From Abditibacterium sp. (GTDB lineage Bacteria; Armatimonadota; Abditibacteriia; Abditibacteriales; Abditibacteriaceae), in contig CBDASK010000003.1 in assembly GCA_965199495.1 (NCBI GenBank), positions 1,920,001 to 1,984,000 on the forward strand: 64,000 nucleotides of DNA, read 5' to 3'. A program made the position numbers and the translations under genes. The notes under the pieces were generated by a model. That model was given only the letters and a program-made list of their open reading frames with translations. It had not been told where the DNA came from and ran no database searches. Every line of letters begins with the position of its first letter. Within the stretch, counting starts at the first letter, position 1. Positions 3,946-61,185 of this stretch are shown here, piece by piece.

Positions 3946-4106
3946 TTAATCGTCGGCTTTTCTGTCAATTCGCGCGTGTCGTAATAACCGCGAAAGAACT
4001 CGATTTTGCCGTCGCCGTTGTGCAACCACGTCGAACCGTGAGGATGAACTTGGTCGTAGAGCGCGCGGCAAATGCAGCCACGGCGGCGTTGGTTCGAGCG
4101 CGTGCA
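3946..4106 (-). pseudogene. Decayed, internally deleted copy of the SnoaL-like gene at 8297-8701
   Basis: AATTCGCGCGTGTCGTAATAACCGCGAAAGAACTCGATTTTGCCGTCG is shared with ~8319-8366; 4055-4106 resembles ~8605-8660. Confidence 0.8.
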
Positions 4107-4121
4107 TCACGCGGCTTTCGC

Positions 4122-4161
4122 GAAAAACCCGCAGTCGAAATTGTTCGACTGCGGGTTTTTC
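4122..4161 (-). terminator. Intrinsic terminator of the M16 protease gene
   Basis: GAAAAACCCGCAGTCGAA-ATTG-TTCGACTGCGGGTTTTTC. Confidence 0.75.
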
Positions 4162-4172
4162 GTTCCCTTTCG

Positions 4173-7088
4173 TTAGCTTTTCTTCTCGGCCTGCGTGCCC
4201 GAAATCACTAATGTGCCCAGCGAAGGATCGAGATATTTCTTGGCCGCTTCGTTGACCTGCGCGGGCGTGACGGCGCGATAATAACCGTTGCGTTTCTGGA
4301 TGTAATCGTTGCCCAAACCGTAAATTTCGCCGACCAACAGTTGACCCGCGACGTTGGAATTTGTGGCCAGCGTCACGGCGTAGGAACCCGTGATATAATC
4401 GACGGCTTTGCTGACTTCATCGGGCGTGAAACCCTGCGTTTGGGCCAGCGTGATCTGGTGACGCGTTTCGGCGATGGCTTTGTCCACGTTCGCCGGATTG
4501 CTACCGAAACCAACTGTGAACGGCCCGGCGCCCATCGAAGCCGCCGTGCCCGCGTAAATGCCGTAAACCAAACCCATTTTGTCGCGGACATTCACCGCCA
4601 GTCGCGACGACAAGCCGCCGCCGCCACCCAAAATCGTGTTCATCACGATAACGCGATAAAAATCGGGATCAGAGCGCTTGAGGTGCGACGGATAACCGTA
4701 AATCACATCGGTCTGCGCCTTGTCGGGCACGTTGATAATTAACGGTTTGGCCAGCGTCGCCGAGGCCGCTTTGCCCGCTTTCATATCTACGTCGGCGATG
4801 TTAATGGCGGGCAAGTTGCCTTTTTTGGGCCAATCGCCGAACGCCTTGGTGATAGCAGCCACGGCGGCTGCGGTGTCAACGTCGCCCACGACCGTCAGCA
4901 CCATTTTGTCGGGCGCGTAGTGATCGGCGTGAAACTTCACCAAATCTTCGCGCTTGAGGTTTTTGATGATGTCGGTCTGCTCGTCCAGCGTCGGCATATG
5001 ATACGGATGACCGACCGGATAAAGCGCGTTCATAAAGGCGATGCGCCCCAGAGTTCCCGTATCCTGACGCTCTTCTGCGAGCGCGGCCAGCGTTTGCTGG
5101 CGCGCCTTTTCCAGTTCGTCGGCGGGAAAGCTGGGGTTGCGCATTTCGTCGGACAAAACGCTCAGCATGGTGCCGAAATCGCGCGACAGCGAGCGCCCGT
5201 TAATCGAAGCGTATTCGTCGCCGCCGCTCACGCCAACACTCGCGCCGACGCCTTCGAGCGTGCGCGCGATGTCCAAAAGCGAGCGCGTCGTGGTGCCGCG
5301 CGACAGTTGCGACGCGGTAAAATCAGCCAGCCCGGATTTGCCAGCCGGGTCGAAAACGCCGCCCGCCGACAGCAACGCGCCGCTCAGGGCGACGGTGGGA
5401 TTGGCGTGATTTTCCTCGACGATGACGGTCAAGCCGTTGGGCAAAACCACGCGCGTCGGCGCGGTTTTCGCTTTTGTTGCTGCGTTTGGCGTCGGCGCTG
5501 TCGGCGCTTTCATCTGCGCGTTGGCGCGCACGAGCGGCTTCAACTGCGCGAGTTGTTTAATCCCAACTGCCGAAGCCGAGGGATTGCGTCCCCAACTCGC
5601 CAGAGACTTCGGCGGCGCGGGCTTCACTGCCGCCGGTGCCATCGGCCCCGCCGCCGTGGCTGCTTGCGCGGCGCCAGCGCCAGTCGTTATCGGATCGAAG
5701 TAGCCGACGGTGCGATTATTGGGCGTCAGATACTTTTTGGCGACGCGCTGCACATCGGCGGGCGTGACTTTACGCAAATTGTCGAGATAGGTTTCGCCAT
5801 ATTTCCAGTTGCCGCGCACGGCGTATTCGCCCAACTGCGCGCCCTGCGACTGCACCGAATCGCGCCCATAAATGTAAGCGGCTTCGGACTGATTCACCAC
5901 GCGCTTCAATTCGTCGGCGGCAATCGGTGTGGTCTGCAACTTCTCGACTTGATCGAGCAGCGCCTTTTCGAGCTTCTCGTTGGAAACGCCAGGTTGCGCC
6001 GTCGCATCGAGCGTCAGCAAATCGGGATCGCGCAAGCCGTAATCGTAGGCGTCCGCCGACGAAGCGAGGCCGGTTTGCACCAGAGCGCCGAAAAAGCGCG
6101 CGGTGCGCCCGCCCGATAGCGTGCCCTCCAAAACATCGAGCGCGTAGCGGTCGGGCGTGTCAAAGGCCGGGATGTGATAGGCGATTTGCACCTGCCCCAC
6201 GGTTCCGGCGCGGCGCACGATGACGCGGCGCTCTCCCTCCTGCGCGGGTTCGGGCGTGATGAAGTGCGGCGCAATCGGCTTGCGCGGCGTCGCGCCGAAA
6301 TACTGCTTTACCATCTTCAGCGCCGCGTTGGTATCGAAGTCGCCGACCATCACGACGACAGCGTTGTTGGGCACGTAATACTTCTGGTAATACGCATACA
6401 TTTCGTCGCGGTTAATGTTCTCGATGTCGGAGCGAAAACCGATGGTCATCCAGCGATAGGGATGCACCTGATAGGCCGCCAATCGCACGGCTTTGGTAAG
6501 CGCGGTGCTGGGATTGTTTTCGCCGCTTTCGTATTCCGAGCGCACGACGGTCATCTCTTTTTGATGTTCGCCCTCGTTAAAGAGCGAGTTCGACATCCGA
6601 TCCGATTCGAGTTTCATCGCCATTTCCAAACGGTCGGAAGCCAGCGTCTCGAAATAGCAGGTGCGGTCGAACGAAGTCGTGGCGTTGAAATCGGCGCCGT
6701 TTTGCTGCAACAGCGCGCTGATTTCGCCCGGTTTGCGCGTCGTCGTGCCCTTGAACATCATGTGTTCGAGCAGGTGGCTCATGCCCGACTGGCCCAACTG
6801 TTCATCCACGGAACCGGCCTTATACCAGACCGAAAAGTAAGCCACGGGCGCGCTATGCACCTCTTTGGTCAAAATCGTCAGGCCGTTGGGGAGCTTGTGC
6901 TCCTCGATTCCGTTGAGCGAACCAACCGACAGGATGCCCGCCATCGGATTCGCCATTGCCTTCGGCAACGGTGCGACTTGCGCGACCGGAACTCCGGGCG
7001 CAGTCGCATTTTGAGCGTAAGTCGGAGCGCCAGCGATGGCCAGAGCAAGCAGCAGAGAAATCGGCGAAAAACGCCCGAAATGTTTCAT
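4173..7088 (-). CDS. Secreted M16 (pitrilysin-family) zinc protease
   Basis: 971 aa; signal peptide; inverted zincin motif HLLEH, NATTSFDRT; second, inactive M16 half after an Ala/Pro linker. Confidence 0.93.
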   Translation of the reverse strand: MKHFGRFSPISLLLALAIAGAPTYAQNATAPGVPVAQVAPLPKAMANPMAGILSVGSLNGIEEHKLPNGLTILTKEVHSAPVAYFSVWYKAGSVDEQLGQSGMSHLLEHMMFKGTTTRKPGEISALLQQNGADFNATTSFDRTCYFETLASDRLEMAMKLESDRMSNSLFNEGEHQKEMTVVRSEYESGENNPSTALTKAVRLAAYQVHPYRWMTIGFRSDIENINRDEMYAYYQKYYVPNNAVVVMVGDFDTNAALKMVKQYFGATPRKPIAPHFITPEPAQEGERRVIVRRAGTVGQVQIAYHIPAFDTPDRYALDVLEGTLSGGRTARFFGALVQTGLASSADAYDYGLRDPDLLTLDATAQPGVSNEKLEKALLDQVEKLQTTPIAADELKRVVNQSEAAYIYGRDSVQSQGAQLGEYAVRGNWKYGETYLDNLRKVTPADVQRVAKKYLTPNNRTVGYFDPITTGAGAAQAATAAGPMAPAAVKPAPPKSLASWGRNPSASAVGIKQLAQLKPLVRANAQMKAPTAPTPNAATKAKTAPTRVVLPNGLTVIVEENHANPTVALSGALLSAGGVFDPAGKSGLADFTASQLSRGTTTRSLLDIARTLEGVGASVGVSGGDEYASINGRSLSRDFGTMLSVLSDEMRNPSFPADELEKARQQTLAALAEERQDTGTLGRIAFMNALYPVGHPYHMPTLDEQTDIIKNLKREDLVKFHADHYAPDKMVLTVVGDVDTAAAVAAITKAFGDWPKKGNLPAINIADVDMKAGKAASATLAKPLIINVPDKAQTDVIYGYPSHLKRSDPDFYRVIVMNTILGGGGGLSSRLAVNVRDKMGLVYGIYAGTAASMGAGPFTVGFGSNPANVDKAIAETRHQITLAQTQGFTPDEVSKAVDYITGSYAVTLATNSNVAGQLLVGEIYGLGNDYIQKRNGYYRAVTPAQVNEAAKKYLDPSLGTLVISGTQAEKKS

Positions 7089-8296: not shown

Positions 8297-8701
8297 TTAA
8301 TCTTCGCCTTTTACCGTTAATTCGCGCGTGTCGTAATAACCGCGAAAGAACTCGATTTTGCCGTCGGCGCCGAATTGCAACAACGTCGCGCCGTGATAAT
8401 GCACTTCGTCGCCCGCCGGGTTTGTGCCTTCGGTCGTCCAGAATAAGCCCGCCGCGTTGTCGCTGGTCGTGACGTGATGAAACTTGGAAAAAACTTCGCC
8501 CAGCGTTTCTTTGTATTCCGTCCAGAATTTAGTGATTTGGTCGGTGCCTTTCATCTCGGCGTTTTTGCTGTCGAGGGCTGAATTGCTCAGCGTGGCGTCG
8601 TCGGCGTAGAGCGCGACAAGTGCAGCCACGTCGGAGGCGTCGCCCTGTTCGAGCGCGTGTAGCGCGTCAATGAATGTTTGTGCTTGTGTTTTGATGTCCA
8701 T
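8297..8701 (-). CDS. SnoaL/NTF2-like protein
   Basis: 134 aa from MDIKTQ; LVALYADDA, DGKIEFFRGYYDT pattern. Confidence 0.8.
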   Translation of the reverse strand: MDIKTQAQTFIDALHALEQGDASDVAALVALYADDATLSNSALDSKNAEMKGTDQITKFWTEYKETLGEVFSKFHHVTTSDNAAGLFWTTEGTNPAGDEVHYHGATLLQFGADGKIEFFRGYYDTRELTVKGED

Positions 8702-15246: not shown

Positions 15247-15278
15247 CCCTCGGTTTCCCTTTGTTTGAGGAGAATCTC

Positions 15279-16283
15279 ATGTTTTTAGGAATAGACGTTT
15301 CCAAAGCGACTCTCGATGCCGCGTTTCTGTCCACCCCAGACGCCGCCAAAACGCGCCACAAAGTCTTCGCCAACACAGAGCAAGGCCATCAACTTCTGCT
15401 CGACTGGTTGCAAGAGCTGCCTTCTACCAGTGCAGAAGCGCCCACATCCGCGCCCACGCTTCACGCGTGTTTAGAAGCCACCGGCATCTACGGCGATGCC
15501 CTTGCGCGCGCGCTCCACCAAGCCGGGCATCTTGTCTCGGTTGTGAACCCCGCTGCCGTGCGTGCCTTTGCCAAAAGCCAGCTCAAGCGCACCAAAACCG
15601 ACAAAGCCGATGCGCAACTCATCGCCCGCTTTTGCGCTTTGCACCGGCCCGCGCCCTGGAAGGCGCCCGCGCCGGAGATCGAGCATCTGCAAGCTCTGGT
15701 GCGCCGCATCGAGACGCTCCAGGAGATGAAGCAGATGGAAGCCAACCGCCTGGAAGTGACCTCCTGTGAGGTCGTTCAACACTCGTTGCGCTCTCACATC
15801 GACTATCTCGAACGGGAGATCGGGGCGACCAAAGACCAGATCAAAGAGCACATCCAGGCGCATCCTGAGTTGAACGAATCCGTGCGTTTGCTCTGCTCGA
15901 TTCCTGGCATCGCTGCGGCCACAGCCGCATTGATCCTGGCCGAGTTGGGCGAGATCGCGCAGTTCGAGAACGCGCGCCAGGTCGCGGCGTTTGCCGGATT
16001 AGCGCCGTGTTTGCGCGAATCGGGTTCGAGCGTGCGCGGCAAGCCGCGCCTGTCTAAGGTCGGTTCGCCGCGTCTGCGCAAAGCGCTCTTTTATCCGGCG
16101 ATGACGGCACTGCGCTGCAATCCCGTGATTAGCGAGTTGAAGCAACGTTTGACCCAGGCTGGCAAGTGTAAAATGCTGATCTTGGGTGCTGCGATGCGCA
16201 AGTTGCTGGTGTTGGCCTATGGCGTGCTCAAGTCCGGTCAGCCCTTCGATGCCGAGTTTTGTGCGCAGGGGCTGAAAAATTAA
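15279..16283 (+). CDS. IS110-family recombinase/transposase
   Basis: 334 aa after SD GAGGAG; LGIDVSK, LEATG, KTDKADA (DEDD), SIPGI, ESGSS serine motif, AAMRKLL. Confidence 0.96.
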   Translation: MFLGIDVSKATLDAAFLSTPDAAKTRHKVFANTEQGHQLLLDWLQELPSTSAEAPTSAPTLHACLEATGIYGDALARALHQAGHLVSVVNPAAVRAFAKSQLKRTKTDKADAQLIARFCALHRPAPWKAPAPEIEHLQALVRRIETLQEMKQMEANRLEVTSCEVVQHSLRSHIDYLEREIGATKDQIKEHIQAHPELNESVRLLCSIPGIAAATAALILAELGEIAQFENARQVAAFAGLAPCLRESGSSVRGKPRLSKVGSPRLRKALFYPAMTALRCNPVISELKQRLTQAGKCKMLILGAAMRKLLVLAYGVLKSGQPFDAEFCAQGLKN

Positions 16284-16505: not shown

Positions 16506-17381
16506 ATGCGACATTTTTTCACTTGTTGTGCCGTTACGCTGCTGACCACTCTGGCGGCTCATGCAGCCACGCCGACGGCGGCGTTACAATTAATGCCCGC
16601 CAAAGCCATTAGTTTGCGCTGGCAGAAACTGCCAACCGACACTGATAACGCGGTTTGGCTACATATCTATTGCGTGCCCAAAAGCCGCGACCCCGAATTG
16701 AAAAACATGGGCGTGGACGAAACTGGCCCGATTACACGCGCAAATATTACAAATGGCCCGTCGTTGGCGTCGTCGCCGTTCTGGCTCGATGTTTTCGCCG
16801 ATGCCAACGCCAAGCGGCGCTTGAATTCGGTCAAATTCGAGGAAGGTCACGATGTGCAAGACATCACATTGCGCTGGCTCGAACCCAAATCGCGGCGCGG
16901 CCCCGTCGTGCTGATGAAGTTTGGTTACACGCATTGGTATGAATGGCAAACCTTTACTTTCGCGCAGGGCTGGACGAAACCAGCGCACGCGCAAACCTTT
17001 TTCTATGGCGGCGAAGGCGAAATTTATAACGATCTCCGTTTCGACCGCACCGACGCGCAGGGCCATTTAATCGTCGTCGAAGATGAAGGTCTGGAAAACA
17101 ACAAAGAGCGCACCAATATCTATCGCTGGAATGGGCGCGAGTGGGACGATAAAACATTGAAATATTTCGTGGTCGGCGCTTCGGTCAAAACCAAAAGCGC
17201 CGCCGACGAGATATTGCGCAAGCGTGGTTACGGCGAAGTTTTGCGCTCGAACGATTATCCTAAATTAAGTCCGGGCTATTGGATTTGGATTACAGGACGG
17301 TTTCGCACCAAAGCCGAAGCCGACGAGATCGTCGCGCATCTGGATAAAAATACGCCCGCCGTCGTGCGGCTGGCGCGCTGA
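16506..17381 (+). CDS. Secreted hypothetical protein with possible C-terminal SPOR-like region
   Basis: SD AAGGAG; signal peptide ending AAHA; C-terminal YPKLSPGYWIWITGRFRTKAEA. Confidence 0.6.
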   Translation: MRHFFTCCAVTLLTTLAAHAATPTAALQLMPAKAISLRWQKLPTDTDNAVWLHIYCVPKSRDPELKNMGVDETGPITRANITNGPSLASSPFWLDVFADANAKRRLNSVKFEEGHDVQDITLRWLEPKSRRGPVVLMKFGYTHWYEWQTFTFAQGWTKPAHAQTFFYGGEGEIYNDLRFDRTDAQGHLIVVEDEGLENNKERTNIYRWNGREWDDKTLKYFVVGASVKTKSAADEILRKRGYGEVLRSNDYPKLSPGYWIWITGRFRTKAEADEIVAHLDKNTPAVVRLAR

Positions 17382-19489: not shown

Positions 19490-20314
19490 TTAGATCACGG
19501 CGCGCCAACCGCACAACCGATAAATTATCGCGCGTTGCGGGCGGCGCGCGTCGAACAAAACGGTGACGATTTGTTCGGGTTGCAAATTCCAGACTTGGCC
19601 GCCGACGGTTTGCGAGGCTTCGATTGTCCGTGTTTCGCCGCGCGCGTTATGAACGCGAAACCAGAATATCACGCGCCCGTTTTTGACTTCGACGACGAGG
19701 CCCGCCGTGGCTGCTCCGCGCTGCACCAACCGTTTGCCCGCGCGCGATTGCGGCAAAAAACCGGTCAACGCCAGCCCGCCGACGACCAGTAAAATCAAAC
19801 CGATTGGCCCCATAAACAAAATATGCAGCCACGGCGAGATGCCGTCTTCGAGAATTGGACGCAAACCGGGCGCAAAGGGAAAATAGCGCACTTTCGTTTC
19901 GCTTCCGTCGCGCAAACGCGTAAATGTCGCGCCGTTGACGGGCCATTCGCCGCTATATTTGGCCGCGCCGCCGACGGGCACGAACTCGAATTGCAACATA
20001 TACGATTGCGAATCACCATAGCGCGGGCTGCGACTGTTGGTAAGTTCGTGGTGCGTAATGGTGCCCGGCGTCGTGTTACCAAACGGCAAAATGAGCACGG
20101 CCAACCCGGCCCATAAACTCAGGAAAAATCCCAGCAGGAACATTCCCAGCAACGCGCAACCCAAAAATGGCGCGCCGATGCGCGCGCCACAACCCATTTT
20201 AGGCGCGCGCGAAACCGCGCGACGCGGCGGCGCTGAACGCAACTCGGCTTCGAGTTGCCAACGCGCCTCGACGGCGGCCCAATCGGTTTCTTCGGCGTTA
20301 AAGTCGGAGTTCAT
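19490..20314 (-). CDS. DUF3592-like membrane protein
   Basis: Two TM segments each followed by a beta domain ending in VRY.P or VTVLFDARRP. Confidence 0.6.
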   Translation of the reverse strand: MNSDFNAEETDWAAVEARWQLEAELRSAPPRRAVSRAPKMGCGARIGAPFLGCALLGMFLLGFFLSLWAGLAVLILPFGNTTPGTITHHELTNSRSPRYGDSQSYMLQFEFVPVGGAAKYSGEWPVNGATFTRLRDGSETKVRYFPFAPGLRPILEDGISPWLHILFMGPIGLILLVVGGLALTGFLPQSRAGKRLVQRGAATAGLVVEVKNGRVIFWFRVHNARGETRTIEASQTVGGQVWNLQPEQIVTVLFDARRPQRAIIYRLCGWRAVI

Positions 20315-22226: not shown

Positions 22227-23393
22227 TTAAAACTTTCCATTCAACTGTTCGCGCCAGAACAAACGTTGATAATTGGCCAGCCAATTACCCGCGATTTGGT
22301 CGGCGCTCAATTTAAACAATTTCGCATCGGCGCCCGAAACCGTCGCCAACGTTTGGCCGCGCGCGACTAAAGCGCCGTTTTTGGCGCTCATTTCCCACGC
22401 TTTCAAACCGTCGCGTAGCAGCGCGTTAGTGCGCGTGGCTGCTTGATCGGCGCGGGCTTTGGCGTCGGGCGCGTTCGCCAATTCGAGCAGCGTCACTTCG
22501 CCCAGCGTCACGTTCCATTGGCCATCTTTCTGAGCAGCCACGGCCTGCAAAGCGCCCGCGACTTCGCGGGGCGCGAAATCAATGCCTTCGGCTTTCATTT
22601 CGGCGAGCGCGGCCTGAGCGCGCTCTTCCGAGGGCGGGTGCGTCTGAAAAATGCCCAGCATGACTTGGGGCGCACGCTGTTCTTGCAATTCTAAACGCTC
22701 CATGAAAGTCACCATCGCCGACGGGTTATATCCGGCTTTTTCCATCATCGGAATCGCGGCTTTGTCGGCCTCTTTCTCGAAACCGACGCCGTAACCGTTC
22801 ATAATTCCGACCAACAAATACTGCGAAAACTGCGCGATATTGGCGCCGTTGCTGGCCTCGCCCGTATTGCGATTGCTGCCGCCGCCCACCATCATTCCGG
22901 CCAACGCCAATAAATTCACCCAACCGAATTTTTTGTTGAGTTTGGCGCCGCGCAACGCGTGCATACGCACGTTATGCCCGATTTCGTGGGCCAAAACTCC
23001 GGCGATTTCGTCGTCGGATGAAGTCATGTCGAGCAGACCGCGATACACGTAAATTCTGCCGCCGGGCAAAGTGAACGCGTTAACATCTTTGTCTTCGATG
23101 ACTTTGACCGTGTAGGGAACATCGGGCCGGGGCGAAACGGCGCCCAATTTCTTCGCCATTCCATTGAGTTTGTCGAGCGTAATTTTCGCGGCGAGCGACG
23201 ATTTGGCGTCGAGCAACTTAACTTTCGGGTTCTTTTCCAGGTCGGCGGCGGCTTCGTCGCCCTGCTTGATTTCGGTCGGCGTAGCTCCGCGCGGCGGATT
23301 GTCGGCGTCAATTTCATCGGCGCGCGCCGCAGAAGCCGCGATTGTCAGAGAAAGCGCGAGGGCGAGCAGAGCGCGAGAAAGAGGGCGTTTCAT
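22227..23393 (-). CDS. Secreted M48-family metalloprotease
   Basis: Signal peptide from MKRPLSR; NAFTLPGG, HEIGH, EKEAD, THPPSEER. Confidence 0.9.
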   Translation of the reverse strand: MKRPLSRALLALALSLTIAASAARADEIDADNPPRGATPTEIKQGDEAAADLEKNPKVKLLDAKSSLAAKITLDKLNGMAKKLGAVSPRPDVPYTVKVIEDKDVNAFTLPGGRIYVYRGLLDMTSSDDEIAGVLAHEIGHNVRMHALRGAKLNKKFGWVNLLALAGMMVGGGSNRNTGEASNGANIAQFSQYLLVGIMNGYGVGFEKEADKAAIPMMEKAGYNPSAMVTFMERLELQEQRAPQVMLGIFQTHPPSEERAQAALAEMKAEGIDFAPREVAGALQAVAAQKDGQWNVTLGEVTLLELANAPDAKARADQAATRTNALLRDGLKAWEMSAKNGALVARGQTLATVSGADAKLFKLSADQIAGNWLANYQRLFWREQLNGKF

Positions 23394-23480: not shown

Positions 23481-23708
23481 TTAACGCTCGGATTTCCATG
23501 CAGCCACGGCCACTCGATTGTGGTTTAAATCTTGGACAATTATAGGTGCCGGTGTTTCAATCAACGTCTGCGAAACGGTAGTAGGATAGCGTTGCGTGAC
23601 CCGGTGCGCCGAGATTGTCACCGCCGCCGACGTGAAGGCGACCAACGCCAGACTGAGGCCCAGCATCGGCCAAACCGGCAGAGGAAGTGGAGAAACGGAA
23701 GTGTTCAT
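23481..23708 (-). CDS. Small hypothetical membrane protein
   Basis: 75 aa with one hydrophobic segment; fills the gap between same-strand genes. Confidence 0.45.
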   Translation of the reverse strand: MNTSVSPLPLPVWPMLGLSLALVAFTSAAVTISAHRVTQRYPTTVSQTLIETPAPIIVQDLNHNRVAVAAWKSER

Positions 23709-41242: not shown

Positions 41243-42209
41243 ACCGCGTTTCGATTTCGGCAATCGCTCGCTTCAAGCGCGTTGGATGATCGCCCAAAAC
41301 CAACAGCCATGGCGTCGCTTGCGCGTTCAATTCTTCGACGAACTGCGCGTGCATCCCAGCGCGAATCGCTTCGCCGTCGCGGATGCCGTCTTGCACGAAC
41401 GGAATATTGGCGTCGGTTAATAGATACAAATCGGCGTGGCCCGCGTTGGCAATCGCTTCGACATCGGGCGAAAATTCGCTCATGTAGCGATGATGCCACA
41501 AGCGTGTCGTCCACGCGTTGGTATCGCAAATTAAAATGCGATTGGCGTCGCGCGCCGTCGCGTTTTCGCGCTTTTGTTGTTCGGCTGCAATTTGCGCAAA
41601 TTCTTCGCTGCGCCAGACGTAATCCAAGCCGCTCCAATATTTTTCGCAGTATTCGCGGCCATATTCTTCGACCCACGCGGTTTGGAAATGCGCTGCCAAA
41701 GCGCGCGCCAAGGTCGTGGTGCCGCTCGATTCGGCGCCCACGACGACGACGCGCGGCACAAAATGGGCGCGCACATGGGGGCGCAACCAATCGAAGTGGG
41801 CGCACGGATTGTCGCGAATCCACGTCGCGCGCATTGGGATTTTCGCGCGCTTTAAATCGACGCAAACGTGCGCACAATCCATGCAATGCGCCCAGCGCGC
41901 GCCGTATTCTTCGCTGGTGAAGGCGGCGTCGGGCTTTTCGCCGAGCCATCCGATGGTTAAATTCGCCCACAACTGCGAATCGTTATCGTCGAGTTCGGGC
42001 TTGTCGTCAATGACAATCACGTTGGCCGTCGGATGCGCCTCGCGCAGCCACGCCGCGCGCGTCGGGCCGGGAATAAAATCATCGGCGCGCCAGCAGACGA
42101 TAACCGTCAAACGTTCGCACTGCGCCAAAGCGGTTTCGATGAGAAAATGATGGCCCAGATGCGGCGGCAAAAACTTGCCGATGGTGACGCCTAAATCAAA
42201 TCGTTTCAT
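41229..42209 (-). CDS. NadR-like NMN adenylyltransferase/ribosylnicotinamide kinase without an HTH domain
   Basis: GKFLPPHLGH, GAESSGTTTL, EEYGREY, ICDTN, FVQDGIR. Confidence 0.88.
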   Translation of the reverse strand: MKRFDLGVTIGKFLPPHLGHHFLIETALAQCERLTVIVCWRADDFIPGPTRAAWLREAHPTANVIVIDDKPELDDNDSQLWANLTIGWLGEKPDAAFTSEEYGARWAHCMDCAHVCVDLKRAKIPMRATWIRDNPCAHFDWLRPHVRAHFVPRVVVVGAESSGTTTLARALAAHFQTAWVEEYGREYCEKYWSGLDYVWRSEEFAQIAAEQQKRENATARDANRILICDTNAWTTRLWHHRYMSEFSPDVEAIANAGHADLYLLTDANIPFVQDGIRDGEAIRAGMHAQFVEELNAQATPWLLVLGDHPTRLKRAIAEIETRFISR

Positions 42210-42811
42210 GGATGAGCAATGGGCGCATCAGGCGCCGTGGCTGCTGCTGCGGACGACATGGATTTGCGCCAATCGCGCAGGCCGATGAGGCAGAGTATCA
42301 AAAAGAATCCGTAGAGCGCCGAAGTCAGATAAAGCCCGCGATGAAGGTAAAGCGGCACATAAATCAGGTCGGCGAGAATCCAAATCCACCAGTTTTCCAA
42401 GCGTTTGCGCGAGAGCAAATACTGCGCGGCCAGCGAAAGCGCGGTCGTCATGGCGTCCCAAAGCGGCACCGCGCCGCCCGCCAGATGCAAAAATCGCATC
42501 ATGAGCGGCACGGAAAATAATAAGAATAGCGCGCAAACCGTAACATCGAATCGGCTGGCGCGCGTGACGGGGAGGGCCGCTTCGCCGCGCTTGCCGCCAA
42601 CCCACAGCGCCCAGCCGAACACGCCTAAAACCAGATAAACGACTTGCAAACCCGTGTCGCCGTAAAGCCGCGATTGGAAAAATAGGACGCCGAAGAGAAC
42701 GTTGTTGACGATGCCAATCGGGAAGTTCCATAGACTCTGGCGCGCCGTCAGCCAGACGCACCAGGCGCCCGTAATAACGCCCCAGATTTCGGGCCAGGTA
42801 AATCCAAACAC
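42206..42811 (-). CDS. pnuC: Nicotinamide riboside transporter PnuC
   Basis: WNFPIGI, DAMTTALS..AQYL..RKRLENWWIWI..D; overlaps the NadR-like gene. Confidence 0.9.
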   Translation of the reverse strand: MFGFTWPEIWGVITGAWCVWLTARQSLWNFPIGIVNNVLFGVLFFQSRLYGDTGLQVVYLVLGVFGWALWVGGKRGEAALPVTRASRFDVTVCALFLLFSVPLMMRFLHLAGGAVPLWDAMTTALSLAAQYLLSRKRLENWWIWILADLIYVPLYLHRGLYLTSALYGFFLILCLIGLRDWRKSMSSAAAATAPDAPIAHP

Positions 42812-43715: not shown

Positions 43716-45053
43716 ATGAATCGAAATCCAAGTTATCAATTCCCGCCCGACTTTATCTGGGGCGTGGCGGCTGCCAGCGCGCAAATCGAAGGCGCCGCGT
43801 TTGAAGGCGGCAAAGGCGCCTCGATCTGGGACACGTTTTGCCGCCAACCCGGCGCGGTCTTAAACGGTGATACGCTCGATATGGCGTGCGATCACTTTCA
43901 TCTTTACGAGCAGGACGCCGATTTGATGAAAGAATTGGGCTGGCGCAACTACCGCCTGAGCATCGCGTGGCCGCGCGTTTTCCCCGAAGGCACCGGCGAA
44001 ATCAACGAAGCCGGATTGGAGTTTTACGACCGTTTGATTGACGCGTTTTTGGCGCGCGACATCACGCCGTGGGTCACGCTGTTTCACTGGGATTTGCCGC
44101 AACCCTTGGAAGACGAAAACGGCTGGCTCAACCGTGCCACGGTTGACGCGTTCGCGGTTTATGCCGATGTCGTCACCAAGCGTTTGGGCGACCGGGTGAA
44201 AAATTGGCTCACGCTCAACGAAATGCCGTGTTTTATCGGTTTGGGCTACGAAACCGGCATTCACGCGCCGGGGCGCAAAGAGCAGAAACAACTCGTGAAT
44301 CAGGGTTATCATCACGCGCTTTTGGCGCACGGGCGCGCCGTGGCTGCTGTGCGCGCCAACGTGCCCGGCGCGAGCGTTGGTCTGGTGCATAATCCGCCGA
44401 CGCCGATTCCGGTTATCGAAACCGACGAACATATCGAGGCGGCGAAAGGTAATTACGAGCGCGCTAACGGCGCGCTCATGATGCCGGTTTTCGCGGGCAA
44501 ATATCCCGATTGGTTTATGGATTCGCCCGACGCGCCCAAAGTGGAAGACGGCGATATGGAGATTATCGCGCAACCGGGCGATTTTCTGGGCTTGAATCTC
44601 TACGCCGGATATTTCGTGAGCGCCGACAACCCGGCGCAACAACTGCCGTTTCCCAACCAATTTCCGCGCGGCGATTTGCCGTGGATTCACGTCACGCCGC
44701 AAACGCTCTACTGGCAAATCCGCTTGGCGCGCGAAGTTTTCGGCGTCGAATCGTTTTACGTCACCGAAAACGGCGCGGCGTTCGATGACCAATTGACCGA
44801 CGCAGGCGAAGTCATTGATTTAGATCGGCGCGAATATCTGCGCAATTATCTCATCGGCTTGCAGCGCGCCAGCGCCGAGGGTTTCGATGTGAAGGGCTAT
44901 TTCGCGTGGAGCGTGATGGACAACTACGAATGGGCCGAGGGTTACGCCAAACGATTCGGTTTGATTCACGTTGATTTCGCGACGCAAAAGCGGGTGCCGA
45001 AATTATCGGCCCAATGGTATAGCACGGTCTGCCGCGAAAATCGTGTGGTTTAA
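43716..45053 (+). CDS. GH1 beta-glucosidase
   Basis: FIWGVAAASAQIEG, TLNEM, YVTENG, DNYEWAEG. Confidence 0.95.
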   Translation: MNRNPSYQFPPDFIWGVAAASAQIEGAAFEGGKGASIWDTFCRQPGAVLNGDTLDMACDHFHLYEQDADLMKELGWRNYRLSIAWPRVFPEGTGEINEAGLEFYDRLIDAFLARDITPWVTLFHWDLPQPLEDENGWLNRATVDAFAVYADVVTKRLGDRVKNWLTLNEMPCFIGLGYETGIHAPGRKEQKQLVNQGYHHALLAHGRAVAAVRANVPGASVGLVHNPPTPIPVIETDEHIEAAKGNYERANGALMMPVFAGKYPDWFMDSPDAPKVEDGDMEIIAQPGDFLGLNLYAGYFVSADNPAQQLPFPNQFPRGDLPWIHVTPQTLYWQIRLAREVFGVESFYVTENGAAFDDQLTDAGEVIDLDRREYLRNYLIGLQRASAEGFDVKGYFAWSVMDNYEWAEGYAKRFGLIHVDFATQKRVPKLSAQWYSTVCRENRVV

Positions 45054-45222: not shown

Positions 45223-47082
45223 ATGAAAAAATCTCTTTTGCTCGCGGGTTTGTGTCTGCTTGGTTTATCGCACGTTCCGGCCCAAGCCGCGCCGGTTTTC
45301 GAGAGTGCGCCGTTTGGCGGCAAGGCGCAACCGGTGCCCGCCGGGGCGAAGTTGACGTTGCAGCCACGGCGGGCGAGTTACTTCTTGGGCGAGAACGTTA
45401 TCGCCGATTTTCAGGTCGAAAACGTGGCCCAAACGCCGTTTGCGATTTCTGTCGGCGGCGATTATCGCGGCGGCACGCGCGCCGACCGTTTCAAAATCAG
45501 CGCGCTTGATGCGGCGGGACAGCCCGTGGCTGATCCGTCGCCGACCGAAAATAATTTCGGCGGTTTGGGCGGCGCCGTTCTGGTTAAGCCGGGCCAGATT
45601 TGGACGCGGACGCTTTCGCTTTTGCCCTATTTGCGCTTGGAAGCGCCGGGCGAATATCAACTTTCGGCGACGCACGATTTGGGTTGGAAAGCCACGAAAG
45701 AGCGCTCGTTGCCCATCGCTCACGCGACGATTCAGTTGCAGATGCCGACACCGGAACAAGCGCGAGAAATCGTGGCGAAAATCGAAGCGTTGCCAAAAGC
45801 TGACGGCGTATCAATGGGCGAGCGCAATCCCAACGAATGGGCCGATTTTTCGGCGCTGCATTATCCGGTTTATCTGCCGATCATCGCTCCTCAAATTCGC
45901 GCGGGCGACGCGCGCTTTTTACCGTCAGTTGCCAAACTCGAAACGCCCGAAGCCACGCGTTTGCTCATCGAATTGTTGGATGCCAAACCCGAAATCGCGC
46001 GTCAAGCCGCCGCGTATTTGACCGAGCGCTTGCCCGTCAACGACGCCGATCCGATGATTCCTGCCGCGCTCGCCGACCGGCCCGAATTGCGCGCGTTTCG
46101 GGCGCAACGCCTTGAGCGCGTCGAGCGCTCGTGGCGCCCGGAGTTCGCCGCGCCGACATTGGATTACGCGCGCCGCGCGCTGCAAAGCGACGAACGTGAA
46201 ACGCTGCGATTGGGCGCGCATTTGATGATGAATCTGGGCGCGGCGCCGGATTATTCGCGGGTTATCGCGGCGCTCAACCGGCGTTTGCCCTTGACGGCCA
46301 AAAAACCGCGTTGGCAATACGTTGGCAACGACCAAGATAACACGATGGAAGGTTGGCAGTTGCAGGACGATTGTCTCGGACTGGCGCGCGCCGCGCTACA
46401 AATCCGGCGGCGCGATGCAGCCACGCCGCCCGGTGACAACACAGCGGCAGACGCCGTCGTTGAAATCGTGGGCATGAAAACCGACCCCGCGCGCTTGGAA
46501 AACGCGTGGGCCGCGCGCGTCACGCCGTATTTGCGCGCGAAGTTGCCGTTTATCCGGCAATTGGCGTTGGAAAGTTTGGTGCCGCCGTACAATTTCAAAA
46601 GTCGGCCTGTCGCCGTAACGCCGACCCGATTAACGCCCGATGTGCGCGCGCTTTTGCCCGCGTTGTTGGCCGATTCCGACATCAGCGTGCGCGTGGCGGC
46701 GGTGACGTTGGCGGGCGCTTCGCGCGACAAAAGTTTGGCTTCGGATGTCTTGAAGAATCTGGCGCAAACGCGCAACAGTTGGGACATCGGCCCCGCCAAT
46801 GAAGCCACGCGCAATCTGGGGGTTTCGCTGCGCGCCGCGCAAATTTGGGCCAATCGGTTGGAACAACCCAAAATGTTCCGGCTGGCGATTGATTCGCTTT
46901 TGCAAATGACGACCGGTAGAGGTTTGAGCGGTTCAAGTCTCGACAGCCCGGAACAGGGCGCGCTTTATCTGCCGCGCTGGCGCCAGTTTTTGCATCGCAA
47001 CTCGGCGGTTTTGGCGGCGAACCAAACGATTGCGCGCGAGAAAATCCCGCGCGATTTGTATCCGGCGGATTGGAGTTTGTGA
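45223..47082 (+). CDS. Secreted hypothetical protein: N-terminal beta-sandwich-like region plus HEAT-like helical repeats
   Basis: Signal peptide ending AQA; PGEYQLSATH; LLADSDISVRVAAV-type repeats. Confidence 0.6.
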   Translation: MKKSLLLAGLCLLGLSHVPAQAAPVFESAPFGGKAQPVPAGAKLTLQPRRASYFLGENVIADFQVENVAQTPFAISVGGDYRGGTRADRFKISALDAAGQPVADPSPTENNFGGLGGAVLVKPGQIWTRTLSLLPYLRLEAPGEYQLSATHDLGWKATKERSLPIAHATIQLQMPTPEQAREIVAKIEALPKADGVSMGERNPNEWADFSALHYPVYLPIIAPQIRAGDARFLPSVAKLETPEATRLLIELLDAKPEIARQAAAYLTERLPVNDADPMIPAALADRPELRAFRAQRLERVERSWRPEFAAPTLDYARRALQSDERETLRLGAHLMMNLGAAPDYSRVIAALNRRLPLTAKKPRWQYVGNDQDNTMEGWQLQDDCLGLARAALQIRRRDAATPPGDNTAADAVVEIVGMKTDPARLENAWAARVTPYLRAKLPFIRQLALESLVPPYNFKSRPVAVTPTRLTPDVRALLPALLADSDISVRVAAVTLAGASRDKSLASDVLKNLAQTRNSWDIGPANEATRNLGVSLRAAQIWANRLEQPKMFRLAIDSLLQMTTGRGLSGSSLDSPEQGALYLPRWRQFLHRNSAVLAANQTIAREKIPRDLYPADWSL

Positions 47083-47083: not shown

Positions 47084-48883
47084 TTATTTCCACGTCACGC
47101 CGACGCGCCATTGATCGTTGTCGGTGCCTTGGTGTTCCTGGCGCGCGTATTCCACGGCCAAACCCAAGCCGTTGCCGCCTGCCGCGCTGCCCGCGTTGAT
47201 GCGCGCGCCGAACTCTTTGTCGCCGGTGTTCCACGCGCCGCCTATCGGGCGAAACGGCGCTGACATCGGGTCGGCGAGCCATTGGCCGGGCAACGCCGCG
47301 CCGTCGCGAAAATTGAGATCGAGGCGCGCGGCGCGCGTGAACTGCAATTGCGCCTCGACATGGCGCGCGACGCTGCCCTGATCGGCCCACGAAGCGTCGT
47401 TGCCGTGCGCCAAATCCACGATGGTGTTGACCTTCATACCAAAAAACAGCGGGCGTTGCGCCTGCAAACGCAGCGTTTGCAGACTTTGCCAGTTCGCCAG
47501 ACTTTCGTCGTCGCTGGAGCGCGTCGCGTATTTGGCGAGTAAGGTTCCGGCTTTGTCTTTGTGGCTCAACTGAAAGCCGATGCGGTTTTCTTCGCTCTGG
47601 TTGAACGGTGTCCAAGGCGCCGTGGCTGCTGTTGTATCCGCCGTCGCATCGTCGCGCCAGCCCAAGGTTTGCGAGGTGCCAACCGTGGCCGAAAACGCCA
47701 ACTCTTTGTTCAAATTCCATTCGACGCCGACATCGCCGCCCTGATTTTGCGTTTCTTCGGTGCGCATTGCGTTCTCGGCGGCGCCCGCCTGTAAAGATGC
47801 GGCGAAATCGTCGCCCGCGCGCACGATTTGCGCGGCACCGACCGCTCCGTTGGCTTTGAACGACAGATTGGGCGTGACCTTCAATTTCAAATCGGCGACG
47901 GCGTTGGCGTCGCGATTTTCCAAGGTGTCGCCGGTTTTGGCGGCGCCCAGATTGCGCCGTTCGCGTTGAGTCGCCGCCAGTTTGATGTTTCCCGTCAGCG
48001 CGTCGGTTTTGATTTCCTGCGTCAGGCGAGCGTTGCCCGCCGTGCCACCGTTAGCATCGGAACTGCCCAGCGTGCTATAACCGGCGGCGGTGTCGCTCCA
48101 CTCGACCGCAACGTCGGCTTTGCCAAGGGGATGTTTAATCGGGCCACCTAATTTGGCGCTCCAACTCGATTTGTCGTCTTTGGCGTCTTGCAGCGAAGCG
48201 AGCGCATAATTGCCGTTGAATTTCCACTTCATCGGCAAGTTCAGCCCGCCGCCCGCGCCCATGAAGGTGCCTTCGCGCATTTTAACGGCGTCGCCCGCAG
48301 CCACGTCGCGCTGCGCCCGCGAAACGTTGAGTTCCAAATTGCCGTCTTTGCCCGCAAACGGTTTGGCGCGCAGCCACGTCACGTTTTGCGCATCGGCGAC
48401 GCCCGATTTTTTGCCGGTCAGCGCGCGATCAAAGTCAGCCAGCGATTCGTCCAACTGGCGCGGGCGCAATGTCGAACCGATTTCGAGCATGCCCAACTGC
48501 GCGCTCACGCCCGCGTTGGCATTAATGCCCGCCAGAGTCGGCGGCGCGACGCGGCCCAGACTGAACTTGGCTTTGCTGCCCAGAACTTCGCCGCTCATCA
48601 AATCGCGGCTGGCGAATTTGCCGCGCCCATCGAAGGTGTCGCGCCATTCGCGCAGTCCGGCGACGAGCGAAAACTGCTGCGTCGCGGCGTCGGTGAACTG
48701 GCTTTGTTGCGCGGGCTGCAACTCTTTTTTGACCGCGCCCAGTTGCGCGTTTTGCCACAATTCGCCCTGCGCTTCGGGCGCCGACGGCAACAGATTATCG
48801 GCTTTGGGCGCATCGGCGGCGCGCGCAACGCCACAGAATAAGGGCGCTAAAGCGATGGCGGCGGTGAATGAGTTGAATCGCAT
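47084..48883 (-). CDS. Secreted hypothetical protein, possible outer-membrane beta-barrel
   Basis: Signal peptide; many alternating amphipathic strands; C-terminus WRVGVTWK. Confidence 0.55.
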   Translation of the reverse strand: MRFNSFTAAIALAPLFCGVARAADAPKADNLLPSAPEAQGELWQNAQLGAVKKELQPAQQSQFTDAATQQFSLVAGLREWRDTFDGRGKFASRDLMSGEVLGSKAKFSLGRVAPPTLAGINANAGVSAQLGMLEIGSTLRPRQLDESLADFDRALTGKKSGVADAQNVTWLRAKPFAGKDGNLELNVSRAQRDVAAGDAVKMREGTFMGAGGGLNLPMKWKFNGNYALASLQDAKDDKSSWSAKLGGPIKHPLGKADVAVEWSDTAAGYSTLGSSDANGGTAGNARLTQEIKTDALTGNIKLAATQRERRNLGAAKTGDTLENRDANAVADLKLKVTPNLSFKANGAVGAAQIVRAGDDFAASLQAGAAENAMRTEETQNQGGDVGVEWNLNKELAFSATVGTSQTLGWRDDATADTTAATAPWTPFNQSEENRIGFQLSHKDKAGTLLAKYATRSSDDESLANWQSLQTLRLQAQRPLFFGMKVNTIVDLAHGNDASWADQGSVARHVEAQLQFTRAARLDLNFRDGAALPGQWLADPMSAPFRPIGGAWNTGDKEFGARINAGSAAGGNGLGLAVEYARQEHQGTDNDQWRVGVTWK

Positions 48884-53359: not shown

Positions 53360-53437
53360 AGCGCGCAAAAGAAAAGCGCCAATGCGACGTGGCTGCACTC
53401 GAACGTTGCGCCACTCGGCCAAGTTTTGTCGTTGAAA
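53360..53437 (-). pseudogene. Diverged copy of the 3' end of the gene at 53930-55319
   Basis: Gap-free alignment with 53976-54053: FNDKTWPSGATFECSHVALALFFCAL vs FGDEDWPRGAWFEIGHVALTLLFCAL. Confidence 0.75.
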
Positions 53438-57044: not shown

Positions 57045-57081
57045 GTTTTTAAAAACATTGGTTAAATCTCTTCCCAACATC

Positions 57082-58625: not shown

Positions 58626-58794
58626 ACCGCAAAACCGTCGCGTCCGATTATACTAAATCGTGATATTTCACTTATGGCCGATTCGCCTTGCGGAGCGCCG
58701 CGAAAGTCGTAAAATCATCATTGGTTATCCCTTCTGAGGATTTATCTCCCCACCAGGGTTTGTGCTAAAACCGCGCACTTCGAGGCGCACCGGC

Positions 58795-59541
58795 ATGAAC
58801 CTCTATCTCTTATTTTTCGCAACGGGCGCACTGGGAATGGTCGCTATGGCCATTCTCGGAGTCGCCGGAAGTCACGGCGGTGGGCACGCGCATAGCAGCC
58901 ACGGCGCCACTTCTCATTCTCACGCGGGCGCGGCTCATGCCGCCACGCACATCGCTGTCGTCGGACGCGGCGCGGCGGGCGCGCGCATCGCGGGCGCCAA
59001 AGTTGGTGGCGCGCGCGTGACCGGTGCGAAAACTTCCGGCGCGCGCGCGAGCGGCGCGCGTGGCAATCGTGGCGCGCGGGCCAATGCTGGCGGGCGCGGC
59101 AGTTTCAAAGACGCGCTCGCAAGTTGGCTTTCGCCGCGCGTTTTGTTCACCGTTGCGCTGGGCATCGGCGCGACGGGCTTGTTGTTAGAGCCAGTTCTCT
59201 CCAACGAAATCGCGCGCGCGGCGTTGTCCGTCGCGGGCGGATTATTGCTGGAAAAAGCGATTGTGGCGCCGTTATGGGAACTGCTGATGCGGTTCGGTTC
59301 GTCGCCCGCGCGCACGCTCGAAAGCGCTGTTTTGGAAGAAGCCGTCGCGCTCACGGCGTTCGATTCCAGCGGTTGCGGCCTGGTTGCAATTACGCTCGAC
59401 GGCCACGAAATGCGCGCTCTGGCGCGCCTCAAACCCGGCGAAGGTTTGCCGCCGCCGCGCGTGCGGACGGGCGATGTTCTCATCGTCGAAAGCGTTGATG
59501 CCACGCGCGGTCAATGCGTTGTTTCAGCTCTGGGCGAATAA
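58795..59541 (+). CDS. NfeD/YqiJ-like membrane protein with C-terminal OB fold
   Basis: N-terminal TM, His-rich then Gly/Arg-rich loop, two TMs, C-terminal GLVAITLDG...VRTGDVLIVESVD; directly upstream of the SPFH gene. Confidence 0.7.
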   Translation: MNLYLLFFATGALGMVAMAILGVAGSHGGGHAHSSHGATSHSHAGAAHAATHIAVVGRGAAGARIAGAKVGGARVTGAKTSGARASGARGNRGARANAGGRGSFKDALASWLSPRVLFTVALGIGATGLLLEPVLSNEIARAALSVAGGLLLEKAIVAPLWELLMRFGSSPARTLESAVLEEAVALTAFDSSGCGLVAITLDGHEMRALARLKPGEGLPPPRVRTGDVLIVESVDATRGQCVVSALGE

Positions 59542-59667
59542 ATTCGCAGCCAGAAAAAATCGTCGGCCTGCGCCGACGGGTCGCAACTGCTATTGCGACG
59601 AACTGTTCTTCGGACAAGTAATTTCTTCGCGTCGGCGTAGGCCGACGCTTATGCTGGCTGCGAATTT
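59540..59667. repeat. Nested palindromic element between the NfeD-like and flotillin genes
   Basis: AAATTCGCAGCCAG..CGTCGGCCTGCGCCGACG...CGTCGGCGTAGGCCGACG..CTGGCTGCGAATTT. Confidence 0.7.
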
Positions 59668-59700
59668 ATTCGCTCCACAACCCAATTTCCAAAAACCAAA

Positions 59701-61185
59701 ATGTCTCCACTCATCATTATCGGCGCCGTATTGCTGATCCTTCTGTTCATTGTTCCGCTCACCGTCACCTCGTTTTTGCGCAACGTCGAGGCCGGAACCA
59801 TCCGCCTCGTCACGCGCTGGGGCGGCACCACAACGATTTATCGCGGGCCGGGCAAATCGTTTGAAATTCCGCTTTTCACGACCGGAACCACGATTTCGTC
59901 CAAAGCCATCAACGTTGACCTCGACATCACCGACCAAACCGCCGACCTCGACCGCAACGGCATTCCCGCGCCCATTAAAGTGCGCGTTTTGGCTTCGGCC
60001 ATCGTTTCGGTTGGCGATACCGACAGCCTGATTCAGACCGGCGCCAACCGCTTTTTCTCCAAGCCGCAAAACGAACAAATCAACATTTTGATTGATTTGT
60101 TGTCATCGTCGGGCCGCCGCGCGGTCAACTTGCTGACGCACGACCAACTGTTTTCGGCGAAAAGTTCGACGCCTCAGGCTGCCATCGAACCGGCTTCGAC
60201 GGCGATTCAGGCGCACGCCGCCGAAGACGACGACGATCCGTTGGCAATTATCATTCGCAAAGCCTGTTCGCGCGAGCTGACCGATTTGGGCTTGATTTTC
60301 AATTCGCTCAACATCAAAGTCGTGCAATCGGAAGTCGCCGAAGCGCGCCGCCGCATGAGCGCCGTCGAAGCCCAAGCCAACGCCGACATCGTCGCCGCCA
60401 ACCAAGCGCGCCGCTCGCAGGAAGCCAAAATCGAAGCCGAACGCGCCATCTCCGACGCGCAACGCGGTCTGGAAGAAAACAAAGCCGCCAACGCCGCTTT
60501 GGTTCAAGAAGCCGAAATCAAGAAAGTTCAGGCGCTCGAAATCGCCGAAGCCAAACGCAAAGAGGCCGCTTCGACGGCTCAGGCCAGCGCCGACATCATC
60601 GCCGCGCAACAGGCGTTGCGCGCGCGCGAAGCCCAATTGGAAGCCGACAGCAAAGTCTCGAACGCGCAGCGCGAACTCGAAACCACGCGCGCTGGCAACC
60701 TGGCTTTGGTCGCCGCCGCCGAAGCCAAACGTCAAGACGCTTTGGCGATTCAGCGCACCGCCGAACTTAAAGCCACGCAAATCGCGCAAGCCACCGCCGA
60801 CGCCGAGCGCGTAAAAATTGACGCGATGGCGGGCGCCGAAGCCGAAGCCGTGCGCATCGAACGCGTCGCCACGGCGCAGGCGCAAAGCATCCGCGAAGTC
60901 AACAAAGCGATCAGCGAAGGCGGCGAAGCGTATTTGCGCTTGCGCCAACTCGAACTGATGCCCGAAATCGCGCCCGAAATCGCGAGGGCGTTGGCGCAGG
61001 CCAAAATGATCACGATTAGCGGAAGCGGCGACGCGGCCAATCAGACGACCGGCCAGATTTCGCAGGTGATTCAAACGATGCTCGCCGCGCAATTGGTGGG
61101 CAAAGGTGGCGCGCTCGATATGAATAACACGCCCGCATTGAACGGCAACGGCAACGGCGTGGCTGCTAACGGCGCGGAGAAATAA
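59701..61185 (+). CDS. SPFH/flotillin-family protein
   Basis: N-terminal TM, band-7-like domain, long AEA-rich coiled coil, C-terminal QLELMPEIA. Confidence 0.82.
   Translation: MSPLIIIGAVLLILLFIVPLTVTSFLRNVEAGTIRLVTRWGGTTTIYRGPGKSFEIPLFTTGTTISSKAINVDLDITDQTADLDRNGIPAPIKVRVLASAIVSVGDTDSLIQTGANRFFSKPQNEQINILIDLLSSSGRRAVNLLTHDQLFSAKSSTPQAAIEPASTAIQAHAAEDDDDPLAIIIRKACSRELTDLGLIFNSLNIKVVQSEVAEARRRMSAVEAQANADIVAANQARRSQEAKIEAERAISDAQRGLEENKAANAALVQEAEIKKVQALEIAEAKRKEAASTAQASADIIAAQQALRAREAQLEADSKVSNAQRELETTRAGNLALVAAAEAKRQDALAIQRTAELKATQIAQATADAERVKIDAMAGAEAEAVRIERVATAQAQSIREVNKAISEGGEAYLRLRQLELMPEIAPEIARALAQAKMITISGSGDAANQTTGQISQVIQTMLAAQLVGKGGALDMNNTPALNGNGNGVAANGAEK

Follow-up and report, generated by a model that had tools for sequence, protein, structure and literature searches.

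A dispersed non-palindromic word in an Abditibacterium genome, its strand-specific spacing and its likeness to DNA uptake signals

What keeps one short word at high copy number in unrelated genes, on both strands and in different reading frames? The question arises from a 64,000-nucleotide stretch of Abditibacterium sp. (contig CBDASK010000003.1, positions 1,920,001 to 1,984,000, hereafter the window), in which a preliminary description listed 28 copies of a non-palindromic 9-mer containing the core AGCCACG. It was proposed there to be a DNA-uptake, Chi-like or HIP-like (highly iterated palindrome) signal. The word is a real, genome-wide, selected, lineage-specific and non-palindromic signal, and its copies exclude one another on the same strand.

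Abundance, consensus and upkeep of the word

The 28 copies are all exact in coordinate and strand. The expectation of about one copy by chance agrees with 100 dinucleotide shuffles of the window (mean 0.66, maximum 3), and the core AGCCACG, first counted at about 65, is present 67 times; the form CAGCCACG has 45 copies. The genome, 95% complete, comprises a 4.72-Mb chromosome of 55.7% GC and two small contigs (24.7 kb and 64.6 kb), and its 16S gene suggests an Abditibacteriaceae-like bacterium. Below, G000 designates this genome, C3 its chromosome, and other G numbers relatives from the same family. Genome-wide, the 9-mer has 1,783 copies against 78 expected under order-2 and order-3 Markov models, an enrichment of about 23-fold; 917 are on the plus and 863 on the minus strand of the chromosome, and the small contigs hold 1 and 2.

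Genes were called with a hexamer model built for this genome (3,878 genes), so that gene starts are approximate. Of the 3,083 chromosomal copies of CAGCCACG, 2,821 lie in genes, and intergenic enrichment of the word is also about 13-fold (247 vs 19). After ten synonymous codon shuffles the 9-mer was still 6- to 42-fold over-represented in every one of the six frames, and a conservative dicodon null, trained on unmasked data, left a 2- to 9-fold excess in the six frames; the enrichment neither disappears with codon shuffling nor belongs to a single frame. The alanine codons involved are indeed uncommon, as first suspected: the favoured frames, Ala-Ala-Thr and Val-Ala-Ala, use the two rarest of them. 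Both tripeptides exceed their reversed controls (AAT 1406/766, VAA 1823/838). Tripeptide enrichment is likewise reported for the uptake signal sequences (USS) of Pasteurellaceae and the DNA uptake sequences (DUS) of Neisseriaceae (PMC2817400; for this and the other papers cited by number, the accessible portions are meant).

Although the 9-mer marks a real over-represented signal, the true word is wider, and the first base of the 9-mer is outside its core. The single-substitution spectrum, compared with codon-shuffled genes, gives the consensus (A/T)GC-AGCCACG-N-CG, with a footprint of at least 11 bases. Substitutions in AGCCAC drop to background (0.2- to 2.1-fold), and those in the following G and in the C two bases on are nearly at background (up to 3.5-fold). 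The core is all-or-none and the remaining flank positions are graded, resembling the inner and outer core of USS (PMC3458573).

In the sister genome G011, 25 of 35 sites in 34 common genes are intact, and fourfold-degenerate positions are 0.90 identical inside the word vs 0.73 outside. In G004, which is more distant, the word is intact at 45 of 193 sites, and silent positions agree less within it than beyond it (0.59 vs 0.68), indicating turnover and recent gain. Compared with word-less relatives, 125 sites align without gaps, mostly with 2-5 mismatches, and amino-acid identity is 0.51 at site codons and 0.65 elsewhere. These alignments indicate that sites arise by substitution in tolerant protein regions. 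The small contigs are near background (2 copies in 24.7 kb and 6 in 64.6 kb vs 0.65 per kb), and two islands are low in the word (10 vs 26 and 10 vs 39 expected).

The copies in the window are the following (frames in one-letter amino-acid code), with one transposase gene as context:

4074..4082, plus: decayed remnant of the 8297-8701 gene
4855..4863, plus: antisense in a peptidase gene, V-A-A
5655..5663, minus: sense, A-A-T
8622..8630, plus: antisense, V-A-A
16563..16571, plus: upstream of a called gene start, inside the longer open reading frame (ORF) 16506-17381
19706..19714, minus: sense, A-A-T
19825..19833, plus: antisense, W-L frame
22434..22442, minus: sense, A-A-T
22534..22542, plus: antisense, V-A-A
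23500..23508, plus: intergenic
28136..28144, plus: antisense, V-A-A
32497..32505, minus: antisense, V-A-A
33077..33085, plus: sense, A-A-T
34521..34529, plus: sense, A-A-T, sulfate permease
35402..35410, plus: sense, Q-P-R frame
35717..35725, minus: antisense, V-A-A
39116..39124, plus: sense, A-A-T, Uup-like ABC-F
42044..42052, plus: antisense, W-L frame
42236..42244, minus: sense, A-A-T
44339..44347, minus: antisense, V-A-A, glycoside hydrolase family 1 glucosidase
45360..45368, plus: sense, Q-P-R frame
46417..46425, plus: sense, A-A-T
47621..47629, minus: sense, A-A-T
48297..48305, plus: antisense, V-A-A; rare close same-strand pair with 48370
48370..48378, plus: antisense, W-L frame
53388..53396, minus: gene remnant; absent from the parent stretch 53967-54053
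58895..58903, plus: sense, S-H-G frame
61158..61166, minus: antisense, V-A-A, flotillin-like
15261..16283, plus: IS110 transposase, free of the core word, outside the signal

The observations first made on particular genes were borne out. The remnant at 4074 is a decayed copy, 80% identical, of the gene at 8297-8701 and keeps the word intact, and that at 53388 corresponds to the parent stretch 53967-54053, which has CGTGGCCGA in place of the word. The core word is absent from the IS110 (15261-16283) and from the ORF at 25815-27503. The latter, of 560 residues and 53% GC, has neither an NCBIfam match nor a copy of the word, and was probably acquired. The Rfam search of the window found tRNA only.

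Other features of C3 are recorded here for completeness. Many palindromes of 4-6 bases are extremely avoided (CTAG, GTAC, TTCGAA, CCGCGG) and many methyltransferases are encoded; the chromosome has neither GC skew nor gene-strand bias. It carries two GTAG-type families of repetitive extragenic palindrome (REP) doublets of about 125-160 copies, a TCATTCTGAG-type repeat with 123 copies, and a CRISPR array with 131 repeats (examples of these features are at 83229, 1108 and 2766400-2775100).

Spacing of the copies on each strand

Copies of the word are more evenly distributed than random: the variance-to-mean ratio at 2 kb is 0.75, and none of 60 control 7-mers (of 137) falls below 0.98. The entire effect resides in same-strand pairs. 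Once close inverted pairs are set aside, separations of 35-300 bp are represented by 66 same-strand pairs vs 227 expected and 215 opposite-strand pairs vs 240 expected. The same-strand ratio of observed to expected pairs is 0.12-0.14 below 100 bp, rises to about 0.3 (200-400 bp) and 0.65 (600-800 bp), and is 1 at distances above 1.5 kb; the opposite-strand ratio is about 1, except for a 3.6- to 4.7-fold excess at 9-25 bp. The same-strand median of the 137 control 7-mers exceeds 1. Fitted with an exponential, the same-strand exclusion of the word has a range of 519 +/- 43 bp and levels off at about one tenth, which is approximately the chance level of the word and indicates that a close second copy is unselected, not forbidden.

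The exclusion is present within genes, across co-oriented genes (41 vs 63) and across opposed genes (9 vs 36). It applies to sense and antisense copies alike and is roughly symmetric upstream and downstream; it acts at the DNA level, independently of transcription direction. Purging of direct repeats is an unlikely cause, since variants sharing only 7 bases still exclude (19/53), whereas dead one-off variants (198/198) and the 137 control 7-mers do not. When the rule of a toy drive model ignores orientation, both types of pairs are depleted; when it is strand-specific, same-strand pairs alone are, and the observed pattern is matched solely under strand-specific redundancy. The same same-strand tendency is found, in small numbers, in G004 with its hairpins masked.

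Known signals were used as controls, the USS and DUS loci all having been selected for holding an inverted pair. For USS, 60 Pasteurellaceae loci (1.02 Mb) were chosen from 79, dropping 12 non-Pasteurellaceae or overlapping loci, those below 6 kb and 2 USS-poor ones. Apart from close inverted pairs, these loci hold, at 35-300 bp, 20 same-strand pairs vs 48 expected and 42 opposite-strand pairs vs 47, while 40 control hexamers never fall below 0.76. For DUS, 47 Neisseria-type loci (0.75 Mb; 12 overlapping, the short and 3 DUS-poor loci dropped) give 25 same-strand pairs vs 35 and 49 opposite-strand pairs vs 35; if inverted pairs are kept, the figures are 83 vs 130 and 116 vs 136. Escherichia coli Chi shows 10 same-strand pairs within 9-600 bp vs 11.1 expected (first 100 of 499 forward sites). 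Same-strand-only exclusion is thus found in USS, more weakly in DUS and not in Chi, which suggests a signature common to uptake sequences. A strand preference has reportedly been seen for single-stranded DUS. In the literature we found nothing on same-orientation exclusion of USS or DUS, although spacing resolved by orientation may already be described in Smith 1995/1999, Karlin 1996 or Maughan 2010; DUS spacing is described as matching the length of conversion fragments (PMC2397512).

Words of the relatives and competence genes

Of the 27 family genomes, 3 are enriched in the word, as are 3 of 251 sampled across the phylum. The three (G000, G004 and G011) form one clade on a quick ComEC tree, with support 100, which indicates a single origin. 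G004 favours a longer form that also builds GTAG-ended intergenic hairpins (53 pairs in 400 kb), without gene-end bias. The word itself was not found in the literature as a described bacterial motif, nor was anything on uptake words in this group.

Other members of the family carry words of their own. For instance, GAGTACTC has 4,077, 3,172, 2,650 and 3,681 copies in G024-G027 and at most 31 in the other 23 genomes, and AAGTACTT has 2,965 in G034 and 2,725 in G033. Both are palindromes with an AGTACT centre that resemble HIP1 and occur, outside cyanobacteria, about once per kb (e.g. L116-L118 for G024-G027, L119-L121 for G033/G034). In G023, GTACGGTCGA has 2,981 copies, mostly as a 24-base palindrome between genes, which occurs about every 1.5 kb and mostly at gene ends (L102-L109). 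It is found in 13 of 17 convergent and 4 of 17 divergent gaps, and the word of G034 shows a similar bias (6/6 and 1/6). In G023 the half-site of the palindrome, as well as the word taken together with its flank, differs by one base from the USS core of Haemophilus. Finally, CACAAAAAATG has 2,478 copies in G001 and 33 in its nearest relative, G008; the full word, CCACAAAAAATGA, is often in inverted pairs (L135, L012). Five hyper-abundant words are therefore present in 11 of the 27 genomes, eight of which carry the four words other than that of G000, and three of the five share a GTAC centre. No word was seen in the other 16 genomes, in samples of 4-106 kb each, which do not prove absence. A palindromic TGTCAACTCAAGTTGACA-type repeat was also observed in G002 (6 in 40 kb; L131-L132).

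G000 possesses genes for ComEC, ComEA, DprA, a ComF-like protein, PilB, PilT, PilC and PilD. The four Pil genes belong to a pilus operon at 861-881 kb of C3, together with those for four pilins and two tandem PilX-type (ComZ-like) proteins of 1,300 residues. Thermus ComZ is a described DNA binder. The arrangement of four pilins plus a ComZ-like protein is that of the Thermus competence locus (PMC6561018). One of the PilX-type proteins has a confident predicted fold (predicted local distance difference test score 83.6). Its longest structural alignment in the VIA-align list is to Thermus ComZ (6QVI; Z 6.8, root-mean-square deviation 3.8, 230 residues), which stands, like an ice-binding solenoid, among middling hits. 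Its Atlas neighbours carry PilX_N (31%) and DUF4900 (20-58%).

Homologues of the ComZ-like protein are encoded in 25 of 27 family genomes. The tandem pair is present in all three word-bearing genomes, and extra copies also occur in word-less ones; no gene unique to word-bearing pilus operons was found among the 18 loci compared. The net charge of the protein is loosely associated with having a word, and it can be considered a candidate reader only, its sequence specificity being a conjecture. In G031 (L518), and partly in G034 (L508), the pilus operon is split into many short ORFs, by sequencing error or decay. ComP is the reader of Neisseriaceae DUS. A search for it (PF16732) gave a match in 0 of 5 genomes, and no control genome gave a match either.

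The word as an uptake tag, its rivals and known systems

Among the three functions first proposed, uptake is supported by the USS-like spacing, by the presence of competence genes and by how scarce the word is in foreign DNA, whereas classical Chi and HIP1 are not. By analogy with USS and DUS, we consider it somewhat probable that the word is a self-tag for uptake or transformation, spread by molecular drive and read per strand. Point substitution writes the word wherever the protein sequence tolerates it, and the word is kept at silent sites; its spacing is such that a second same-strand copy within about 0.5-1 kb is redundant and an opposite-strand copy is not. Some component of the competence machine would prefer fragments carrying the word, so that alleles creating it would enter by recombination more frequently and be spread by molecular drive. 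The preference could be single-strand or directional, for instance fixing the strand that passes ComEC or reading the incoming single strand. Each strand would thus build its own evenly spaced set, a palindromic word would serve both strands, and the fitted range of about 520 bp would mirror the length of the recombining DNA pieces. Speculatively, the reader might be the ComZ-like tip pilin, which evolves fast, or any of the four pilins that accompany it.

Several observations weigh against an uptake tag. The DUS control is weak, its ratio of 0.71 being compared with 0.75 for the lowest control word. The ratio of perfect to one-off copies is 1,780 to 3,213 for the word, against 868 to 417 for USS and 875 to 282 for DUS; the family words, apart from the common centre of three, are unrelated in sequence, unlike DUS dialects. 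G000 has only about 10 intergenic head-to-head hairpins of the word and few terminator-type pairs. The ComZ match is modest, a Foldseek search with the model gave no clear match, and the pilus operon, ComEA and ComEC are also present in genomes without the word. In Haemophilus influenzae, published uptake was independent of site orientation (PMC1939737) and close site pairs gave no extra uptake (PMC7811141), which would place the polar step after outer-membrane passage. The strand-specific step is unexplained even for USS, and per-strand spacing also fits an intracellular polar signal.

Such a signal, Chi-like and involved in polar repair but with a reader that is neither RecBCD nor AddAB, is an unlikely alternative. 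If breaks are two-ended and replication has no fixed direction, a stop or loading site would have to lie close by on each strand separately; polar stop sites would be evenly spaced per strand, and the chromosome has no GC skew. AddB was not found in G000, G004 and G011 and is present in the other 10 of 13 genus members, and the same three genomes carry a Dna2/Bad-like nuclease-helicase (compare PMC7430649) which the 10 do not. In G000 this protein has 1,421 residues (C3 4111365-4115630, minus strand; L085:7368-11630); together with a 299-residue ORF it accounts for all PD-(D/E)XK matches, RecB not having been found. RecC was not found in any of 5 genomes, the E. coli control being positive. 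Within the genus the Dna2/Bad-like gene occurs where AddAB is missing, and most other genera of the family appear to lack both AddAB and RecBCD. However, the gene is broken in G011, it is present in G029, where the word was not seen in a 106-kb sample, and it was not found in seven word-bearing genomes (G001, G024-G027, G033 and G034), for which reasons the protein was rejected as the reader. A rule placing words only where AddAB is missing fails with G001, which has AddB plus 2,478 copies of its own word. Moreover, E. coli Chi lacks the same-strand exclusion (100 of 499 forward sites), and the word is near background on the small replicons, to which its protection would be of use.

A site methylated on one strand, with HIP1-like logic and an asymmetric word, could serve strand discrimination in repair or methylation-dependent transformation, each orientation informing one daughter strand within about 1 kb; we regard this as quite unlikely. 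It does predict independent strands, the sister words are palindromes that resemble HIP1 and occur about once per kb, G000 has many methyltransferases, and methylated HIP1 raises transformation in Synechococcus (bioRxiv 2024.09.10.611283, accessible portion). Nevertheless, a footprint of at least 11 bases with graded flanks is unlike the crisp site of a methyltransferase, and other restriction-type sites are strongly avoided in G000, not enriched. No clade-specific methyltransferase was found among matches to PF00145, PF02384 and PF01555: the two enzymes common to the three genomes, checked in five others, are also present in word-less genomes. The large type ISP-like restriction-modification gene is whole in G000 and remodelled in G004 and G011, where a cytosine methyltransferase gene occupies its middle (L496:6044-9163, L500, L501).

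It is improbable that the word is a place where a chromosome protein, acting in priming, the reloading of helicase or nucleoid organisation, binds or loads about once per kb per template strand. Okazaki fragments have a length near the exclusion range, and the lack of replichore polarity and an effect at the DNA level, independent of transcription direction, would also suit such a site. But close relatives manage without the word, which changes completely within one family; small replicons are near background for it; and USS shows the same spacing, no intracellular USS binder being reported in the accessible portion of PMC1939737. Finally, remnants of REP-like mobile repeats, or a by-product of codon and peptide usage, are very improbable and largely refuted as a sole explanation, because, despite the GTAG-ended hairpins of G004 and the inverted pairs of G001, the flanks in G000 hold no conserved element, the 125 sites align gap-free to word-less orthologues, and the word stays in excess in every frame after codon shuffling, with a 13-fold excess between genes as well; a hairpin repeat may have been the first source of the word and cannot explain its upkeep.

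If the word is an uptake tag, a wider reading is possible, and we hold it tentatively: the family would be a third independent home of sequence-specific uptake, in which the reader was re-tuned at least five times to unrelated asymmetric and palindromic words, possibly via abundant hairpin repeats, and uptake tags, USS included, would act per strand. To our knowledge, sequence-specific uptake tags have been described for two families only. Their rarity and origin are an open question, on which a family with at least five words in 11 of 27 genomes, beside close relatives without any seen, offers repeated natural experiments in their rise and switching. If true, DUS/USS and HIP1-type palindromes would be joined in one mechanism, and same-strand-only exclusion would become a sequence-only test for uptake tags in any genome. 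That the word and USS show this exclusion and Chi does not suggests that evolution driven by uptake includes a strand-specific step so far unrecognised. A real tag would also be a practical key to transforming these little-studied bacteria.

As for known systems, the word differs from REP elements and REPINs (hairpin-forming REP doublets) in that 2,821 of 3,083 copies are in genes with unconserved flanks, the true REP-type repeats of G000 being other sequences. Like Chi, it is short, non-palindromic and over-represented, with evidence of polarity. The suggested Chi likeness does not hold, since RecC, RecB and AddB were not found, E. coli Chi lacks the spacing signature, and there is no replication strand skew: the word walk is flat (range -2 to 71 vs a sqrt(N) of 56), a weak test because the chromosome itself has no skew. 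Neither such skew nor a terminator function was seen in G000, intergenic hairpins being few.

Cyanobacterial HIP1 (GCGATCGC) is quasi-periodic and a proposed uptake signal (PMC13756078). Like HIP1, the word is abundant in coding DNA. It is not palindromic, and its likeness to HIP1 was therefore not sustained; the palindromic-octamer trait is found instead in sister lineages, where GAGTACTC (G024-G027) and AAGTACTT (G033, G034) are 8-base palindromes at about 1 per kb. CGATCG is avoided in G000, and no cognate methyltransferase was identified in three Pfam families. The pilus operon is like the Thermus pilA1-4/comZ locus in having four pilin genes and then a large PilX-type beta-solenoid protein, which here, unlike Thermus ComZ, has 1,328 residues and extra barrel and sandwich domains and is tandem-duplicated in the word-bearing clade.

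With Neisseriaceae DUS the word shares lineage-specific dialects within a family and same-strand exclusion, which is weak in DUS; inverted pairs at gene ends in G023 and G034 recall DUS/USS terminators. The family words, unlike DUS, have no common core and several are palindromic. Compared with Pasteurellaceae USS (AAGTGCGGT), the word belongs to an unrelated phylum and is unrelated in sequence, more degenerate and of longer exclusion range, with few terminator pairs and no AT-tract flanks seen in this genome. Both are non-palindromic, at about 0.6-0.8 per kb and equal on the two strands, with a critical core, graded flanks, shaped tripeptides and scarcity in foreign DNA, and in both the exclusion was measured on the same strand only.

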